The notes below the pieces were generated by a model. That model searched no databases. It was not told where the DNA came from and was given only the letters and a program-made list of their open reading frames with translations. This document shows, one piece after another, positions 19,367 through 62,279 of a stretch of 64,000 nucleotides of DNA (position 1 is the stretch's first letter; the number at the start of each line of letters is the position of its first letter). The DNA is taken from sequence record PV435126.1; one strand, written 5' to 3'. A program made the translations under genes and the position numbers. Origin of the DNA: Escherichia phage EPFV3-03/2025.

Positions 19367-19681
19367 GTGGAGTTGGATTTGGCGGCATTGTACGGTATCT
19401 GCATGGGTACCGTTGTCCCGATCTGTGTATGGGCTTTCAACCAGTGGCACACCAAATGGAAAGGCATTTCCAAGAGGCTGGATGAGCTGGAGAAAGACCT
19501 CATTTTAGTGAAAAATAGCATGGTTACAAAAGATAGACTTGATTCCATTATTGAGACCCGGTTAAGTAAGCTAGAGGCCGATATTAACGACCTTAAGCAA
19601 GATGTCAGGACAGATGTCTCCGGTATCAGAGCCGATGTGCAAAAGATTTTACACATGCTTGTAGAGCATAGTAAAAGGTAA
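19367..19681 (+). CDS. membrane-anchored coiled-coil protein (function unknown)
   Basis: 104 aa; N-terminal hydrophobic segment then heptad-rich region; RBS GAGGAGG. Confidence 0.45.
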   Translation: MELDLAALYGICMGTVVPICVWAFNQWHTKWKGISKRLDELEKDLILVKNSMVTKDRLDSIIETRLSKLEADINDLKQDVRTDVSGIRADVQKILHMLVEHSKR

Positions 19682-52100: not shown

Positions 52101-52536
52101 TGGTAAAGTGGCAGTGTGCGGTAACTGTAATAACGCCAAAGCTTACTCTTCTGTAGCAGGCAAGGAGATTTCCCGTAACGATGGTAAGCCTGTCACGTAC
52201 GGTGTTATGTACGGGGCACAAAAAGATAAAGTTGCAGACATGCTGGATATCTCTCCAGAGTTGGGGCAAAGGGTAATCGATGCGCTTTGGGATGCCAACC
52301 CAGGTCTTAAGGGGCGTAAAGAGGATCTGGAGAAATTCTGGGAAGCAACAGGTAAGAAATTTATCTACTCTTTTGACGGTCATGCCATCTGGACCCGATC
52401 TAAACACTCTTTACTTAATGCATACCAACAGAATGGTGGTGCATCGTTGTGTGACTTAGTTGGGATACTCATGCACCACCAAATGGTGAAGCGTGGGTGG
52501 TACGATGAAGGTGTCCGTCGTATTATTTATTACCAT
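49144..52536 (+). CDS. family A (T7-like) DNA polymerase, exon 1, containing an in-frame intein
   Basis: ExoI-like FDFEASGL and YHCGLF at the N-terminus; motif A-like GIDGSNLEQLIGAW; motif B-like RNDGKPVTYGVMYGAQ. The track ORF stops at HK* exactly where motif C (HDE) is expected; reading resumes in exon 2. Confidence 0.8.
51157..52125 (+). mobile_element. intein with LAGLIDADG-type homing endonuclease domain, inserted in the DNA polymerase
   Basis: 323 codons between polymerase motifs A and B. Begins CYSGDTQILTEKGW (intein block A), block B-like VTDQH, LAGLIDADG-like LLIAIHDDGY and FIASLSNWDGW, ends ...VAVCGN followed by Cys (+1). Flanking exteins (NGDAH / CNNAKAY...) align with the T7 polymerase GDIH-TKNQ region. 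Confidence 0.75.
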
Positions 52537-52812
52537 AAATAACATTGTGGCTTCATAGAGTAATCTATGTCGAATAACCTCTTTAACTGCGGGAAGCCTA
52601 AACCTTATGGCAAGGTAATCCGCAACGAAGCGCTCAAAAGAGCGAACGCTCAGAGGCCATTCCGAAAGGAAGTAGACCAGCAAGTGCGGTCGAAATGGGA
52701 GGATTCCTGTGGTTGCTTATCATAGGAATATGAGATGGTCCGATCCTACGTGAAAACGTATGGCTATGCACGTAATGGTGCGGGGTAGCTTAACGACCTA
52801 CCTGAACTATTG
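52537..52812 (+). ncRNA. group I self-splicing intron (no ORF) in the DNA polymerase gene
   Basis: 276 nt between exon 1 (ends ...YYH, last nt U) and exon 2 (DEYQ...). P-like AACUGCGGGAAG (~52585), Q-like AAUCCGCAAC (~52617), R-like GUAGACCAGCAAG (~52670), S-like GAGAUGGUCCGA (~52731). Possible P1 pairing of exon CCAU with intron GUGG; intron ends in G. Confidence 0.7.
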
Positions 52813-56002: not shown

Positions 56003-56368
56003 ATGGAACAAATGAACGATCAAGCGTCGGTTGCGATGAACGAGCAAGAACAACCTCAAGAATTTTTCTTAGGGTTAAGCAAAGATCAGGTGTCTCTCCT
56101 GCTAGTGCTCTCTTCTTTCATGGGGAGACTTCAGGAGCTCACACAACAACCAGAGGCTGAACAATTATTTCAGGCTCTGCGCGAAGAAGAAAAATATCGT
56201 CGTTTGGATTATGCCTTAGGTTGGGTAGCTCAGCAACGAGATATGCTAATGGCCCTTTCTGGGACGACAAGTTTTGCAATGGGCCTGTTGGCTCAAGTGC
56301 AAGACAAATTAATTCAAGCAGGGTTTGCACACACAGCAAACACCAACGAAGAACAAGGAGACAAATAA
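56003..56368 (+). CDS. hypothetical protein
   Basis: Track ORF 55958-56368; internal ATG (MEQMNDQ) is the likelier start. Confidence 0.4.
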   Translation: MEQMNDQASVAMNEQEQPQEFFLGLSKDQVSLLLVLSSFMGRLQELTQQPEAEQLFQALREEEKYRRLDYALGWVAQQRDMLMALSGTTSFAMGLLAQVQDKLIQAGFAHTANTNEEQGDK

Positions 56369-57594
56369 TGAGCGTTATTCAACAATTTGCCAACCCGATG
56401 AATCCGCGTGAAACTGTTTTACTGGCTCACGGTATGATTAAACGTGTCAGCATCAAACCTATCAAAGGTGCTGATCCTACAACAGGTATTAAAACCACTG
56501 TGTGGCAAGGTAAGAAAATCGAGTCCAGTCACACCATCTCTTTACTGATTTCTGAACTGGATTCTTCTGATAACCTACTTCAAGGTGGTGAAGAAGTTTG
56601 GATCAGCATGGGTGATAAATTGCTCAAACCAGGTCATCAAGATTCCGTCTCTGTTAAAATTGATGACAAGTGGGAAACAGTAACGCCGGGATGGATCGTA
56701 AATATCCCTTTAAAGGCAAATGAGCATAACGGTAAGACCTACTACAAAGGCTCATTGGCTAAAATGGTTAAGCTGGGGGCAGGAGAGGCTCCAGCAGCAC
56801 CACAGCAACAAAAACAGCAACAAGGCACACAATCACAAGGCCAGAAGCAGAAACCTCAGCAGAATGCCAATCAGGACGTTTTACGCATCTATGGTGATGT
56901 GACTCAGATTGTTGGCAATGTGGTTACTGTCAATGACCACAAGATCGGTGAAGGTGCTATGGTTGTCTCCGATGAGCAGCTTAAAGACCTGATAGTTGGC
57001 GGTCGTGTTGCAGCTATTGTTGACAAAGACACCGGGAATATTATCAGCGGCTTTAAGGCCTACCCACCTAAAGCAGAGAACGGCACTCAAGGTTCTGGTG
57101 GCAAGCGTAAATCCTCTTACGACCCTATTGGTGTAGAGACGGGGCACAGCATCAATGCGTTGCAAATCATCCTAGATCGCGGATTCAAGGTTGACAGCCC
57201 TTTAGATGTGGCTAAAACATTGCACGTGGTCACCATCGAGCTTAAGAAAGAGTACGCTCAAGCCACCAACCGGACCGAAGATGAAGTAGGTGCCAGTGTT
57301 GGTAACGCGGTATTGAACGCTTGTCGCCGTATTGACAAGAAAACGAAAGTTGATGATTTTGCAGCAGCAATTACTGCAGAGGCAAAAGATGTCTTGACTA
57401 ATCTTGCTGAACCGTTGTATGATTGGATCAAGAACGGTGCTGGAGCCACTGACCATCAAGAGCCTCAAGCTGCCAAACAGGAAGGCGCTCCACAGCAAAA
57501 CACTGTAGACGCCCCTCCTGTAGATGATGACGGAGATGACCCGATGGATCAGAATCCAGCACAGTATGACTTCTGTGATGACATACCTTTTTAA
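56368..57594 (+). CDS. putative ssDNA-binding protein (Gln-rich linker, acidic C-terminal DDIPF tip)
   Basis: Track ORF 56221-57594; likely start ATG 56368 after AAGGAGACAAATA. C-terminus ...DDDGDDPMDQNPAQYDFCDDIPF resembles the SSB acidic tail; Q-rich low-complexity linker mid-protein. Confidence 0.45.
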   Translation: MSVIQQFANPMNPRETVLLAHGMIKRVSIKPIKGADPTTGIKTTVWQGKKIESSHTISLLISELDSSDNLLQGGEEVWISMGDKLLKPGHQDSVSVKIDDKWETVTPGWIVNIPLKANEHNGKTYYKGSLAKMVKLGAGEAPAAPQQQKQQQGTQSQGQKQKPQQNANQDVLRIYGDVTQIVGNVVTVNDHKIGEGAMVVSDEQLKDLIVGGRVAAIVDKDTGNIISGFKAYPPKAENGTQGSGGKRKSSYDPIGVETGHSINALQIILDRGFKVDSPLDVAKTLHVVTIELKKEYAQATNRTEDEVGASVGNAVLNACRRIDKKTKVDDFAAAITAEAKDVLTNLAEPLYDWIKNGAGATDHQEPQAAKQEGAPQQNTVDAPPVDDDGDDPMDQNPAQYDFCDDIPF

Positions 57595-57611
57595 CATCTA
57601 GTTAACATAGC

Positions 57612-57638
57612 CCTGCCCGAAAGGGTGGGGCATTTTTG
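57612..57638 (+). terminator. rho-independent terminator (CCTGCCC-GAAA-GGGTGGGG + T-run)
   Basis: Second copy of the GNRA-loop terminator. Confidence 0.6.
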
Positions 57639-57656
57639 TATAAGGAGATCTGAAAA

Positions 57657-58073
57657 ATGACACTAGAAGATATCATTGTTAAACCTGAGAACTATGACCA
57701 ATACAATCTATCAACTCAATCTGTAGATCTTGGATGCGCCACTGTCAGTGCGTGGCTGGTTAACGGAAAAGAGCTGGATAAATGCTTAGAAGCTCACATG
57801 ACTGTTAACAAGTTCCTGGATGAAAATACTCACTGGCTGGAAGGTGCAGGTGTATACGCTTCGTGGCTGGAGAGCATGGGATTTGACTACCAGTCTGAAG
57901 AAGGGTGGTGGAGCTATTTAGCTATCTGTCCAGAGACGTTGAAATGCTTCATGAAATATTCTGAAGATTTGGAGTACCGGGCGGTGGTTGATAGTGCTAT
58001 TGCCCGTTATAGCCGCAAACCTTTTTCCCACGACATTAAAACTGTGGAAGAATTTGTTGAAGTTTTCTGTTGA
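57657..58073 (+). CDS. hypothetical protein
   Basis: 138 aa; RBS AAGGAGA. Confidence 0.5.
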   Translation: MTLEDIIVKPENYDQYNLSTQSVDLGCATVSAWLVNGKELDKCLEAHMTVNKFLDENTHWLEGAGVYASWLESMGFDYQSEEGWWSYLAICPETLKCFMKYSEDLEYRAVVDSAIARYSRKPFSHDIKTVEEFVEVFC

Positions 58074-58098
58074 CACAGGTTGGAAGGTGTGCAATTAT
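58070..58098 (+). promoter_or_regulatory. putative sigma70-like promoter (TTGACA + weak -10)
   Basis: Consensus -35 but poor -10 (AATTAT). Confidence 0.3.
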
Positions 58099-58169
58099 AA
58101 CCTTGCAGAGCTGGAGGGTGTGATGAACGAAGAAAACTGGGATGTGTAACTAACAGGAGGCCACTGCCC

Positions 58170-58367
58170 ATGATTTATCGAATCCGTGTAAGAGAAGATG
58201 CACCAGGCTGTTACTTTGACTGGCGTGGGTGGTGGTTTCTCCACCCGATGGATGGACTCACAGATAGAATGCTGGATGCTGCCCTTTATACAGATACAGA
58301 CATAGAATATAATCTCTATCTGAAGGACGGTATAGATAACGGTCTATTTGAAGCAATTCCTGTGTAA
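58170..58367 (+). CDS. small hypothetical protein
   Basis: 65 aa; RBS AGGAGG. Confidence 0.4.
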   Translation: MIYRIRVREDAPGCYFDWRGWWFLHPMDGLTDRMLDAALYTDTDIEYNLYLKDGIDNGLFEAIPV

Positions 58368-58435
58368 GAGGATGTGATAGCCATGTTTTATGATCTTCCT
58401 ATAGCGCCACCACCTGTTGAACCCGGAGAACTAAG

Positions 58436-58861
58436 ATGACCTATGAAATGCCAAAACTGATTCGTGATGATGCCCAAAACGCTCACACCATTATTATGGG
58501 CAAACGCATGGATATTATTTGTCATAAAGATTTCTGGGAAGGAAGTTACTTCACAGAGTATTTTGGTAAACTGGACAATGGTCTGCTGATCCAGTTCTAC
58601 ACCGATGCGGAAAACAACATTCACTGGGAGTTCGAAACTGAAGATATTCATAAACTTTTCACCTTCCTCGGTATTAAGGTTGAGGCCAAGTTTGAAGAAG
58701 GCGAGTGCGACGATTGTGGATTCTACGAGGTAACAGATTTCTATCTCCCAAGTGGTGAGAACCTTTACTATGAAAGCCACTTCGGCAACTCAAATATGCC
58801 ACAAGGTTGGGATGAGTTTTTTGAAATTGCGGAAGAGGAGCTGGCATACCGTGATTATTGA
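58436..58861 (+). CDS. hypothetical protein (translationally coupled to macro-domain gene)
   Basis: 141 aa; its stop overlaps the start of the downstream macro-domain ORF. Confidence 0.5.
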   Translation: MTYEMPKLIRDDAQNAHTIIMGKRMDIICHKDFWEGSYFTEYFGKLDNGLLIQFYTDAENNIHWEFETEDIHKLFTFLGIKVEAKFEEGECDDCGFYEVTDFYLPSGENLYYESHFGNSNMPQGWDEFFEIAEEELAYRDY

Positions 58862-59309
58862 TACTGTAGAGGGAGATTTAATCTCCCTTTTTAAGAGCGG
58901 TGCTGGTCACCTGATCCACGGTTGTAACTGCTTCCACACAATGGGCAAGGGGATAGCAAAACAGATTGCCCGTGAGTTCCCTCAAGCATTGGCAGCTGAC
59001 AAAGAGACCAGACACGGTTGCCTAAGTAAACTGGGTGCGTTCTCCCGATGGGAGCACTTATCTCCGAGAGGTATTGTCTACGGAATCAATCTGTATACTC
59101 AGTTCTACCCAGGACCTAATGCTGAATATTTCTCAATCCTGAAAGGCTTTGAGCTAGTCAATGAGGTATTCAGTGGATCGACTTTACCATTCTACATCCC
59201 TAAGATCGGGTGCGGCATAGGCGGTTTGAAGTGGGAGCACGTAGAGGACGTTATTAACCTTGCCACTTTTGATATGAATATTATCGTGGTGGAGTACAAA
59301 AAGTGTTGA
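58851..59309 (+). CDS. macro-domain protein (ADP-ribose binding/hydrolase fold)
   Basis: Track ORF 58752-59309; likely GTG start near 58851 after GGAAGAGGAG. HGCNCFHTMGKGIAKQI and IPKIGCGIGGL match macro-domain signature regions. Confidence 0.6.
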   Translation: MIIDTVEGDLISLFKSGAGHLIHGCNCFHTMGKGIAKQIAREFPQALAADKETRHGCLSKLGAFSRWEHLSPRGIVYGINLYTQFYPGPNAEYFSILKGFELVNEVFSGSTLPFYIPKIGCGIGGLKWEHVEDVINLATFDMNIIVVEYKKC

Positions 59310-59334
59310 CAGCGGGTTTTTGAGATGGTATAGT
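59306..59334 (+). promoter_or_regulatory. sigma70-like promoter (TTGACA-17-TATAGT)
   Basis: Near-consensus; drives a 56-codon ORF starting near 59363. Confidence 0.5.
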
Positions 59335-59559
59335 CACCACAACGATTGAGAGAGGGAGCACTATGGAGACTAAAATCTTAATTCTGGCTGTGATAGATAC
59401 AACCGAAGGGGCTGTGTTCGAATCTGCAGGAGGGTATTTCTACCTACCCTACGGAAAAAGAACTGCTGAACCAGGTAGAGATTCAATCATCAAAGTGTTC
59501 CCGTGTGCTTTCTGGCTGGAGATTTTGGTATAAGATTGCAGAGGATTTGGGAGAGAATT

Positions 59560-59754
59560 ATGAGAAACAAGAGAGAGCTTTACTCTGGCGAGTGGATAAA
59601 CGATCAACAGGTTGGAGAGGTAACCTGCTTCCGGTGTTTTACTCGGTACAATCTTAAAACTGCACCAAAAAGTGTTCCAAAGACTGATGGTTATTACATA
59701 AAAGAGCCTCATTGCCCGAAATGTAAATGCCGAGTATACTGGAGTAACCTGTAA
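59560..59754 (+). CDS. small zinc-ribbon protein
   Basis: Track ORF 59503-59754; probable ATG start near 59560; CFRC...CPKC pairs. Confidence 0.4.
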   Translation: MRNKRELYSGEWINDQQVGEVTCFRCFTRYNLKTAPKSVPKTDGYYIKEPHCPKCKCRVYWSNL

Positions 59755-59758
59755 AAGA

Positions 59759-59786
59759 TTGACATCTGAAAACTACAGTGTATAAT
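59759..59786 (+). promoter_or_regulatory. sigma70-like promoter (TTGACA-16-TATAAT)
   Basis: Consensus hexamers upstream of 59818. Confidence 0.55.
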
Positions 59787-59817
59787 ATACGCACAGACTA
59801 ACAGAGAGCGACGTATT

Positions 59818-60009
59818 ATGGTAATTTTTAACCGGGATGGCATCATAGTTAGACAGCACCCCTTCCTTGAATACTATCAAATTGAGCAATGGTGCTACGG
59901 AGATTGCAGTCACTCCTATGGGCAAAGTTGGGGATATCGCACAGTTTTTGAATCAACAGACCTTGACAAAGTAAGACAGAAAGTTTTAGAACTTATTAAC
60001 AACAAGTGA
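59818..60009 (+). CDS. small hypothetical protein
   Basis: 63-aa ORF downstream of the consensus promoter. Confidence 0.45.
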   Translation: MVIFNRDGIIVRQHPFLEYYQIEQWCYGDCSHSYGQSWGYRTVFESTDLDKVRQKVLELINNK

Positions 60010-60019
60010 GTATCGTGCC

Positions 60020-60352
60020 ATGGTAACATTGGAAAGACGTAAAGCTATCGCCGCCACACTGGCAGACATCTTTTGGGATTGCAACTTAAAAGATACCCGA
60101 AATTGTGGCGCATCTGTAGATGTATTATTCCCACGGCCCACCATTGTTGCTATGGGAAACCTGTTAAACGTAGTGTACGGAGCATGGGACAAAGAAGGTG
60201 GATTCTATATCTGGCAACCTGACTACGGAGCCTGGAAAGAGGTAAGGGGTGCGGATGACTTTGGGCCTACAGTTGCTAAGATGGATGGCTGGGAAATTTA
60301 TGTTGGAAACGACATGAGGCTGAAAGGCGAGATTGTTTACTGGTTACCTTAA
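60020..60352 (+). CDS. hypothetical protein
   Basis: 110-aa ORF. Confidence 0.45.
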   Translation: MVTLERRKAIAATLADIFWDCNLKDTRNCGASVDVLFPRPTIVAMGNLLNVVYGAWDKEGGFYIWQPDYGAWKEVRGADDFGPTVAKMDGWEIYVGNDMRLKGEIVYWLP

Positions 60353-60372
60353 GAAAGTGCAGGAGATAAAGT

Positions 60373-60618
60373 ATGAACAAAGGGTGGACATTTGTAGACG
60401 GCGTTAAAAACATGCCTCTAGGAAAGTATATCGTAGCCATGACTGATGAGGATGGCAATGTAGATTTCGGAGCTTGCGAGGTTGTTCTTGCAGGGTCTGG
60501 TAACTATGTGGACAAAACTGGGATAATTAACGGTCAGTTCTACTTTGATCACAACCCTGTTGTAGCGTATATGGCTATGCCAGAGTTCAAGTTCCCAAAG
60601 GGGGGTGCCGATGTTTAA
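60373..60618 (+). CDS. small hypothetical protein
   Basis: 81 aa; RBS AGGAGA. Confidence 0.45.
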   Translation: MNKGWTFVDGVKNMPLGKYIVAMTDEDGNVDFGACEVVLAGSGNYVDKTGIINGQFYFDHNPVVAYMAMPEFKFPKGGADV

Positions 60619-61131: not shown

Positions 61132-61444
61132 TACTTGAAAATCCCTGGCACATCAAGTATAAGGGGGATTTCTAAAATGGATTTCCTCCTTTTGATATTT
61201 TACCTAGCCGGATATTTTAAAATTCCTAGAAAATCAGAAAATGGATCGAAAACTAAAATGGATTTTTTCAAGACAGGCACGATAAGCTGCGCTGCTCATT
61301 CTATCATTCGCACCGTACTCCAAATCACCGTTCCAGATTTTCCGCACACACTCTCGCCCTTCTACCAGAACTTTCCCAACTTACCTTCGGCCTTTTATGA
61401 CAATAAGTTAATTATTATCAGTAAGTTTTGATACATCTCTCTCA

Positions 61445-61625
61445 GTACTCGATCTGTTTTTCATTTCAAAGATTGGATTTTCTGAAAAATTTTCTCGATA
61501 AATTTTTCGGTACTCGATCTGTTTTTCGTTTTCTGAATCAGATTTTCTGGAAATCGTTCCGGCGCTCGACCTGAAATTTTTGGGGACGAAATCGATTTTT
61601 CGTTTTCAGAAACGGATTTTTAAAA
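61445..61625. repeat. three imperfect direct repeats (~55-65 bp; GTACTCGATCTGTTTTTC... / GATTTTCTGRAAA)
   Basis: Two near-identical copies of GTACTCGATCTGTTTTTC and a third degenerate copy, each with GATTTTCTG-like submotif; non-coding. Confidence 0.6.
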
Positions 61626-61737
61626 TTTCTATATGGGAATATTTTAGGAGGTATTATTTTATATAGAATTGTCACGGTAGGTAATTAGCATGCTAACTAA
61701 ATTTATGAAATGCGAAAAGTTCTCATTTAGAATTTTG

Positions 61738-62060
61738 AATGATAATCATTCTCGTTTGCAGAATAACGGGCACCCCCGGTGATTGTCTCCCGGCCCCTAC
61801 TGCCCCGGCTTGTTATTATAGTATCACACAGGACAAAGAAAGCAAGAAGTTTTTGCATAAATTTTTAGACGATAATGATAATCGTTCTCATTTCATGCAG
61901 CGCCCATCCCCGGTGGTTGTCTCCCCCGTCACCGGTGCCTGCCGTCCTTTCGATATGTATATTGTGCCACCTGGCGGGGCCGCTGTCAACACTTTTCAAA
62001 AAAAAAAATTCTAACCTGATGCGCTAACCGCTGCAACCTGGCGGGGCCAGCCTGGTGGGC
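61738..62060. repeat. GC-rich direct repeats in AT-rich context (GATAAT...CCCCGGTG.TTGTCTCCC twice; CCTGGCGGGGCC twice)
   Basis: Two copies of a ~60-nt unit and two copies of CCTGGCGGGGCC; contains an 11-nt A-run near 61995; overlapped by an improbable track ORF. Confidence 0.5.
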
Positions 62061-62102
62061 CTACGCTATAGGATAGGCAACAATTGAAGAGGAGGTACAA
62101 AA

Positions 62103-62279
62103 ATGAAAGGTAATAGGATCCCCCTGGAAAATGTAGCTATTAATAACGCTGAGGCTATCGCCCTGGTTGAAAAGGCTATGGCGGGAGCGTTGGAACATAA
62201 AGAAGAGTACGAAAAAATGATGGTCAACCTAGCAGGGGCGGCGGCTGGAGAATTCTACCCAAAAAATAATTTTAACTAG
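62103..62279 (+). CDS. small hypothetical protein (58 aa)
   Basis: Not in the track (under 60 aa); ATG after GAAGAGGAGG RBS; MKGNRIPLENVAINNAEAIALVEKAMAGALEHKEEYEKMMVNLAGAAAGEFYPKNNFN. Confidence 0.4.
   Translation: MKGNRIPLENVAINNAEAIALVEKAMAGALEHKEEYEKMMVNLAGAAAGEFYPKNNFN

Follow-up and report, generated by a model that had tools for sequence, protein, structure and literature searches.

At one locus of Escherichia phage EPFV3-03/2025 (sequence record PV435126.1), the end of a gene of unfamiliar kind runs into the start of a gene for a macro-domain protein, and the question that this locus raises is a double one: what the macro protein would act on, and whether the two genes work together. 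The original prediction, made from the letters of the sequence, had taken them for a two-gene unit and for a candidate counter-defence against ADP-ribosylating host systems such as DarT-type toxins, or else a regulator of phage or host ADP-ribosylation. Having followed it up over a window of 64,000 nucleotides (nt), the whole stretch of DNA that was analysed, we suggest that the macro gene encodes an AdfM (Tk.4)-type macrodomain with a Gln in its active site, which would probably erase the DarT2 ADP-ribosylation of phage DNA, and that its upstream neighbor, here called the partner, would be an unrelated acidic accessory gene. The window belongs to an rV5-like E. coli myovirus (Vequintavirinae, Vequintavirus), and the 2.8 kb around the pair are 95-98% identical to more than 100 records. 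Counted from the first letter of the window, the features of the pair are these:

58436..58861, + strand: partner gene, ATG at 58436, TGA at 58859-58861; 141 amino acids (aa), 16.8 kDa, isoelectric point (pI) 4.3; phrog_8157
58851..59309, + strand: macro gene, GTG at 58851, TGA at 59307-59309; 152 aa; Tk.4/AdfM-type ALC1-like macrodomain
58851..58861, + strand: overlap of partner stop and macro start, 11 nt, GTGATTATTGA, read from the sequence
58834..58840, + strand: Shine-Dalgarno-like AGAGGAG, 10 nt 5' of the macro GTG and within the partner coding sequence; kept in phage JohannBauhin

Both are real genes and not chance open reading frames (ORFs), since more than 115 phage records share them and they match PHROG families (E 2e-81 for the partner; 5e-59, or more exactly 4.8e-59, for the macro protein against phrog_335). 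The two ORFs and their overlap lie where the original prediction had put them. Both macro motifs that it quoted were found, HGCNCFHTMGKGIAKQI spanning aa 23-39 and IPKIGCGIGGL spanning aa 116-126. Genes of the same 426 nt and 459 nt, with the 11-nt overlap, are called in most public Vequintavirus records, where the macro gene goes by names as varied as "macro domain protein," "O-acetyl-ADP-ribose deacetylase" and "phosphatase"; the overlap is identical in JohannBauhin, rV5 and Bas54. Although the macro reading frame is open from 58752, the true start is the GTG at 58851, because AGAGGAG stands 10 nt upstream of it, the resulting N-terminus (MIIDTV.GDL) agrees with those of the Krischvirus and T4 homologues, and the JohannBauhin frame carries an in-frame TGA three codons before the GTG. 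An ATG at 58812, from which one record derives a 165-aa product, was rejected on the same grounds: the JohannBauhin stop falls between this ATG and the GTG, and the homologous N-termini fit the latter.

The macro protein and its likely substrate

That the downstream product adopts a macro fold, a claim for which the original prediction had proposed structure prediction and a profile search as checks, was confirmed by both. The Pfam Macro profile (PF01661) gives 28.3 bits, above its cut-off of 22 (E 1.9e-6), and an AlphaFold2 model built from an alignment of 84 relatives reaches a predicted local distance difference test (pLDDT) value of 96.8 and a predicted template-modelling (TM) score, pTM, of 0.91. 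The best Foldseek matches to this model are TARG1 (TM 0.78/0.85), Poa1p, the Taq (Thermus) and Mtb DarG macrodomains, BT1257 and SCO6735, each with a probability of 1.00; 172 PDB matches were returned at E <= 1e-3, and the named entries in the top 50 are all macrodomains, bar a few designed serine hydrolases. The family profile run against the PDB returns the same set of DarG, BT1257, SCO6735, TARG1 and Poa1p at 5e-17 to 1e-13, and DarG is also the best PDB match of the macro protein's own sequence (PDB 5M31, 5M3E, 5M3I). We regard it as certain, going by the model, that the product is a genuine macrodomain with the predicted three-layer alpha/beta/alpha fold; it is a member of the ALC1-like (TARG1/DarG) class, because these five proteins top both the hidden Markov model (HMM) and the Foldseek lists. 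A second macro-like tblastn match in the window (19367-19480, E 0.11) was set aside as a chance match within an unrelated 104-aa ORF.

The macro protein is not, however, a full DarG. The DarG models of NCBIfam (NF048014; E 1.6e-12, 47.4 bits against an equivalog cut-off of 250 bits) and PADLOC (E 1.1e-13) align with it over profile positions 3-139 of 338 and 4-141 of 329 only, which is the macrodomain part, so that by these models all 152 aa are macrodomain and the C-terminal DarT-binding domain is absent. Nor does a darT stand beside it: the upstream gene has no match in Pfam or PADLOC, the two downstream ORFs have no DarT match in Pfam, and the genome is that of a lytic phage.

The active site points to a particular branch of this class. 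Key residues in the 84-sequence alignment are N26, G32, G34, Q84, G120, G122 and G125, among which N26, G32, G34, G120 and G125 show little or no variation across the relatives and have identical counterparts in DarG, AdfM and SCO6735; the invariant N26 aligns with the Asn whose mutation impairs AdfM of phage PhiKZ. Q84, invariant in 84 of 84 relatives, sits at the position of the catalytic Lys of DarG and TARG1. The Gln of the "NLYTQ" motif is shared by the window protein, Krischvirus Tk.4 and T4 Tk.4, against a Lys in DarG (K80), TARG1 (K84) and PhiKZ AdfM ("FPTKD"); it aligns with Gln85 of SCO6735 ("NMIGQHG"), and BT1257, a Bacteroides protein, likewise has a Gln there. A catalytic role belongs to K80 in DarG and to the Lys84/Asp125 dyad in TARG1 (PMC9411070), and the ALC1-like class as a whole is unified by the reversal of thymidine-linked ADP-ribosylation (PMC9411070); SCO6735, of Streptomyces coelicolor, efficiently removes ADP-ribose linked to thymidine and can neutralise DarT, and the Q85A mutation abolishes its activity (PMC9411070). 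The match of Gln84 to Gln85 therefore supports the hydrolysis of ADP-ribosyl-thymidine DNA that we propose here, with no catalytic Lys taking part. By this alignment the Tk.4 clade reads as a Gln-type (SCO6735-type) ALC1-like macrodomain, and the AdfM family comes in two active-site flavours, Lys (PhiKZ) and Gln (T4, rV5).

Relatives of the macro protein are abundant, with tblastn homologues in 2782 of the 50,697 phage records searched. In T-even phages the match is the gene annotated tk.4, between vs and tk, at a coverage of 97-99%; the identity is 39% over 153 aa with T4 Tk.4 (full length, E 4e-40) and 43% with ime09 Tk.4. The Krischvirus homologue, 69% identical, lies between vs and tk, exactly where tk.4 belongs, as does a metagenomic homologue at 58% identity, and the rV5 record itself labels the macro gene "tk.4, phosphatase; similar to RB49 Tk.4" and notes the upstream gene as resembling an RB49 hypothetical protein. 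In a transposon screen reported in a 2025 preprint (HIDEN-SEQ), tk.4 was the single match needed by T4 on a host carrying DarTG2; its knockout sensitised the phage, and the gene was renamed adfM, for anti-DarT factor macrodomain (10.1101/2025.11.20.689424). In a 2026 paper the AdfM of PhiKZ, gp104, is shown to strip from DNA in vitro the ADP-ribose that DarT2 has attached, and to detoxify DarT2 (PMC13309987).

Taken with these systems, most likely the substrate would be ADP-ribosyl-thymidine DNA and the phenotype in this phage anti-DarTG2, by analogy with its relatives. In the mechanism that we propose, a stand-alone macrodomain, the Vequintavirus counterpart of Tk.4, would be made from host-polymerase transcripts together with the surrounding small accessory genes. 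It would bind the ADP-ribose that host DarT2 puts on thymidine in single-stranded phage DNA and hydrolyse the bond between ribose and base, restoring replicable DNA and neutralising the DarTG2 defence, and would thus behave as an orphan antitoxin that lacks the DarT-binding domain of DarG. Instead of relying on a Lys, as in DarG and TARG1, catalysis would be of the SCO6735 type, with Gln84 holding the substrate and a water network in position. The DarT-type counter-defence of the original prediction is thereby upheld by homology to Tk.4/AdfM, by the DarG-model matches and by the Gln shared with SCO6735; as an idea it was already present in the literature (as AdfM) and in GenBank (as tk.4).

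A number of points weigh against an eraser of DarT2 marks. For the Vequintavirus protein itself the argument is one of homology; the T4 evidence, reported in a preprint, is purely genetic, and erasing in vitro is known for PhiKZ AdfM and SCO6735, both outside the Tk.4 clade. Identity to T4 Tk.4 is only about 40%, and the biochemically tested PhiKZ gp104 is of the Lys type and just 23% identical. The extended loop that follows the Gln in SCO6735, a mobile element proposed as a DNA clamp, is missing, the phage proteins having a gap of 6-7 residues there relative to SCO6735 and BT1257. The Bas54 macro gene showed no conditional requirement in one host comparison, in a host that may or may not carry DarTG2. 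Against the independence of the partner, macro and partner co-occur in three lineages (Vequintavirus, the type represented by contig L021, and Krischvirus), which leaves room for a loose functional link. Lastly, the macro family resembles the Poa1p phosphatase, and it retains the His that Poa1p crystal structures have probed by mutation.

This last resemblance is the reason why many records say "phosphatase," and it opens a different account, in which the macro protein would be a Poa1p-type metabolite enzyme, an ADP-ribose-1''-phosphate phosphatase or a related hydrolase of ADP-ribose derivatives, that, in the course of infection, cleans up by-products of RNA repair or of the metabolism of nicotinamide adenine dinucleotide (NAD) and leaves DNA alone. 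Poa1p structures are indeed among the best matches (E 2e-6 by sequence, 1.4e-13 by profile, 5.7e-10 by Foldseek), the "LIHxCNC" strand with its His is common to both proteins, and phrog_335, like many GenBank records, carries the phosphatase name. Of the residues probed in Poa1p, the His is aligned ("LIHGCNC" versus "LIHSCNC") and the Ser position is a Thr by hand count, the names His23 and Ser30 being those of PDB titles. Nevertheless, the name stems from an old motif-based transfer ("contains A1pp phosphatase motif") and not from a measured activity, the T4 Tk.4 phenotype is specific to DarTG2, and the surroundings of the macro gene showed no Tpt1/KptA-type source of ADP-ribose-1''-phosphate. 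A homologue at 45% identity (locus L023) also lies among RNA-repair-type genes, an Rnl2 ligase and a Thg1-like gene, which would suit such an enzyme; the same locus, though, has a NADAR, a type of anti-DarTG1 enzyme (PMC11825919), 0.5 kb off, and an anti-DarT island fits equally well. On balance we hold the metabolite enzyme to be quite unlikely.

As an observation in its own right, locus L023 (2274-4737) has the Thg1-like gene overlapping the macro homologue from upstream, the NADAR 0.5 kb downstream and the Rnl2 RNA ligase nearby; it may be an anti-DarT island or an RNA-repair context.

The macro protein might instead reverse the ADP-ribosylation of protein or RNA, whether that is brought about by another host defence or by a phage ADP-ribosyltransferase, which is in essence the "regulator" of the original prediction. 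TARG1, the top structural match, and SCO6735 act on protein-linked ADP-ribose too (PMC9411070), and the macrodomain superfamily has many substrates. We nonetheless think this unlikely, given that thymidine-linked ADP-ribose is the substrate that unifies the ALC1-like class, as noted above, and that DarTG2 is the only known phenotype of the family. A phage ADP-ribosyltransferase under the control of the macrodomain was looked for and dropped as a candidate: none is annotated in about 50 kb of rV5 (the other ~88 kb were left out), nor does a close relative annotate one within the 24 kb that surround the gene.

Whatever its substrate, the macro gene has the genetics of an accessory function. In published transposon data for the Vequintavirus Bas54, whose pair has the same lengths and the same 11-nt overlap as that of the window, bas54_0091 (the partner) was hit at 21 of 23 TA sites and bas54_0092 (the macro gene) at 31 of 31, both being non-essential on E. 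coli K-12. Natural loss alleles occur as well. The clearest is protein P0004, from a 135.5-kb Vequintavirus contig, in which an in-frame deletion between two copies of a short repeat fuses partner aa 1-55 to macro aa 85 onward; the copies lie in the window as follows:

58592..58600 and 59100..59108, + strand: 9-nt microhomology CAGTTCTAC, two copies flanking the natural deletion

Other genomes (P0057, P0039, P0023) carry frameshifted or internally deleted macro genes. Such loss alleles, like the dispensability, are as expected of an accessory, condition-dependent gene, and fit that description of the macro gene.

The partner gene and gene order across phages

The partner is far more obscure. 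It has no match in Pfam, NCBIfam, PADLOC or the PDB sequences, and matches only phrog_8157; its structure is predicted with confidence, and the fold matches nothing solved. The original prediction had found no recognisable motif in it, which holds for the databases searched but not for the family, whose members carry an invariant C-x2-C-G ... H-F-G ... P-x2-W signature (C91-x2-C94-G95, H115-F116-G117, P122 and W125) and have a pI of 4.1-4.6. The family is also tiny. A word-indexed search of 5.8 billion proteins returned 8 clusters and reached near relatives only, the Krischvirus and metagenomic members emerging from profile and exhaustive searches, and an exhaustive HMM search of 1.84 billion representatives yielded about 10 genuine members of 138-145 aa. 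Five further candidates (P0102, P0109, P0110, P0111 and P0113) were treated as spurious, being long eukaryote-type repeat proteins (VWD/TIL, Ig, HA) raised by summed weak scores.

Adjacency to the macro gene, with the overlap, is confined to Vequintavirus proper, and the two-gene functional unit of the original prediction finds no support in the gene order elsewhere. In Krischvirus (RB49, GEC-3S, Makalu), the partner homologue (35% identical) lies 9 kb away from the macro homologue at tk.4, directly upstream of dam. In Vequintavirinae-like contigs (L021 and L022) the order is reversed, with the macro homologue (73%) 1.1 kb upstream of the partner homologue (39%) and four genes between them. 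Similarly organised contigs (L010-L012), as well as L017, whose partner is 70% identical, have the partner and no macro gene within 2-4 kb. Three metagenomic lineages, T4-like by their neighbouring genes, place the partner before Dam, some with a QueC-like gene between and one with Mom upstream, and the macro gene is absent from the flanks of their partner homologues. In all, the partner stands without a nearby macro gene in L010-L012, L017, L013-L015 and L008/L009. Conversely, the partner is found in 176 phage records against the 2782 with the macro gene, and about 2,600 records, T4 included, have the macro gene and no partner.

Nor do the two genes share one history. The JohannBauhin partner is 97% identical, against 80% for the macro protein, and collection-wide the macro alleles occur at >=90% and at about 80% identity while the partner stays above 90%, a pattern that suggests replacement of the macro allele or its faster evolution. 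These comparisons suggest that the partner is independent of its neighbor. Separately, we note a mosaic boundary at the gene junction when JohannBauhin (L016 1086-1959) is set against window 58436-59309.

Could the pair still be a true two-component counter-defence module, in which the partner inhibits DarT2 in the manner of the DarG C-terminal domain, or targets the macrodomain to DNA, and translational coupling sets the stoichiometry? The 11-nt overlap is conserved throughout Vequintavirus, the families share the genomes of the three lineages mentioned, DarG itself joins a macrodomain to a toxin-binding domain (PMC11825919), and in T4-like phages the partner family adjoins the DNA-base enzymes Dam, Mom and QueC-like. 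The module is contradicted, though, by the 9-kb separation in Krischvirus, by the reversed and interrupted order in L021, by the partners of L010 and L017 that stand alone, by the roughly 2,600 partnerless macro records, among them that of T4, where Tk.4 gives a phenotype, and by the unequal divergence of the two genes (partner versus macro, 97% versus 80% in JohannBauhin and 35% versus 69% in Krischvirus). That the partner should be a split-off DarG C-terminal domain was rejected, as it matches neither the NCBIfam and PADLOC DarG models nor any solved fold. Furthermore, translation of the macro gene could be independent of the partner because it has its own Shine-Dalgarno-like AGAGGAG. We therefore consider such a module very unlikely, while a weak residual link between partner and macro gene remains, because both families co-occur in three lineages.

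What the overlap does tell is modest. Gene junctions with an overlap are frequent in this genome arm (4 of 19 in the same 10-kb stretch of a relative), so that an overlap alone says little on function; it gives at most coupled expression. In the account that we favour, of an AdfM-type eraser beside an unrelated gene, the overlap would reflect compact packing in the genus, possibly with some translational coupling, and no shared biochemical function.

There is also a chance, albeit a small one, that the partner represents a new kind of accessory factor, for counter-defence or for DNA modification. The idea rests on its acidity, its unmatched fold, its invariant signature and its neighbors, namely Dam, Mom, QueC-like and the macrodomain; such a protein might inhibit a host sensor or attacker of modified or unmodified phage DNA, or bind DarT directly. 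With regard to these neighbors, we observe that in T4-like phages the partner homologues always lie directly upstream of Dam, or of a QueC-like gene and then Dam, one of them with Mom upstream. Partner homologues by Dam are located at:

L004 2501-2932
L006 1501-1932
L013 3502-3924
L015 2592-3008
L008 514-951

Neighbouring genes and expression

The arm of the genome that holds the pair carries a helicase, methyltransferases, a primase and a DNA polymerase, followed by many small ORFs on the same strand; the window has no tRNA genes. Three features flank the pair:

58170..58367, + strand: 65-aa ORF, phrog_9903, upstream of the partner
59306..59334, + strand: sigma70-like promoter, TTGACA, 17 nt, TATAGT, with TG; 11 of 12 matches in a promoter scan; the -35 box overlaps the macro stop
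59560..59754, + strand: 64-aa zinc-binding gene, PF23903, Pfam E 8e-23

The promoter would mark the start of the next transcription unit. Many sigma70-type promoters are annotated in this arm of rV5, and the run of small same-strand genes with sigma70-like promoters is consistent with an early expression of the pair driven by the host polymerase.

The flanking genes bear on how the pair may have come together. The 65-aa ORF is syntenic with partner homologues in divergent relatives with or without the macro gene (tblastn; L010, L021). The 64-aa zinc-binding gene is 77% identical to BN201_0091 of GEC-3S (L003 2946-3140), which overlaps the 3' end of the GEC-3S macro gene, tk.4, by 11 nt, and in the window the promoter and a 56-aa ORF (59363-59533) separate the two. 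It appears that macro gene and zinc ribbon passed between Krischvirus and Vequintavirus together, as one block. The simplest reading of the gene order is that a cassette of the macro gene, with the zinc-binding gene, was exchanged with Krischvirus-type T4-like phages and would have landed downstream of a resident accessory gene, the partner.

Several further observations were made in this part of the window. A 408-aa ORF at 56368-57594 (+ strand; phrog_4477), in which Pfam recognises no domain, is the positional counterpart of bas54_0087, an essential gene according to the Bas54 transposon map (8 of 57 TA sites hit). The DNA polymerase region holds a group I catalytic intron at 52527-52762 (+ strand; Rfam RF00028, 64.7 bits against a gathering score of 50); in the same region, rV5 annotates the polymerase in two pieces, and the close relative VB-EcoM-WM has an HNH endonuclease just downstream of a single polymerase coding sequence. 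An ORF-poor stretch of about 1 kb (window ~61150-62150), unannotated in relatives, contains three 47-nt direct repeats 65-74 nt apart (61435-61620) and several pairs of 17-21-nt repeats 67-136 nt apart, and could be regulatory, origin-like or a source of small RNA. Finally, 16 unannotated GenBank records of "Campylobacter phage" (MG0656xx, host C. jejuni) share 95-97% identity with window 57600-60400, and are probably mislabelled or contaminant.

Comparison with known systems

If the macro protein does act as we propose, rV5-like phages, which could serve in therapy and in biocontrol of E. coli O157 and other strains, would carry a ready-made eraser of DarT2 DNA ADP-ribosylation, and an eraser of the AdfM type would help to explain and to predict host range on strains bearing DarTG2. 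The AdfM family is very widespread, with a homologue in about 2,800 of 50,700 phage records, and moves between unrelated phage groups as a small cassette. Our analysis leaves current understanding as it was; it adds one more genus to a family that received its name in 2025-2026, and cautions against reading gene overlap as functional coupling. The link between the macrodomain and DarT was already known; what deserves attention here is mostly the orphan partner family and its recurring place beside DNA-modification genes.

Among cellular proteins, the human TARG1 (C6orf130) and the yeast Poa1p are the best structural matches (TM 0.72-0.85), but both are eukaryotic, the Lys84/Asp125 dyad of TARG1 is absent from the window protein, and Poa1p is described as an ADP-ribose-1''-phosphate phosphatase. 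SCO6735 and BT1257 (PDB 5E3B, 2FG1, 2AFC) share with it the Gln at the Lys position and the His-x-Cys-Asn strand, although they are cellular, 22-25% identical, and alone in having the extended loop after the Gln. The DarG macrodomain is of the same class, whereas the window protein has a Gln in place of Lys80, and neither a DarT-binding domain nor an adjacent darT. PhiKZ gp104 is, like the window protein, a stand-alone phage macrodomain, and the conserved Asn and Gly-rich loops align; it differs at 23% identity, with features of its own in a DarG-type Lys, an insertion before the last Gly loop and import into the phage nucleus.

T4 Tk.4 stands closer. Both are stand-alone macrodomains of about 150 aa, from an early or accessory region and dispensable in the laboratory, and share HGCNCFHTMG, NLYTQ.PGPN and IG.GI.G, including the Gln at the Lys position. 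In contrast, the T4 order is vs, tk.4, tk.3, tk, while the macro gene of the window comes after an unrelated 141-aa gene, the two proteins are some 60% diverged, and the anti-DarTG2 phenotype is that of T4, shown there only. The closest relative outside the genus is the Tk.4 of Krischvirus (RB49, GEC-3S), at 69% identity, and these phages share with the window not only the macro gene but also the 64-aa zinc-binding gene and a partner homologue (35%); there, however, the macro gene occupies the canonical tk.4 locus, 9 kb from a partner homologue that stands directly upstream of dam.

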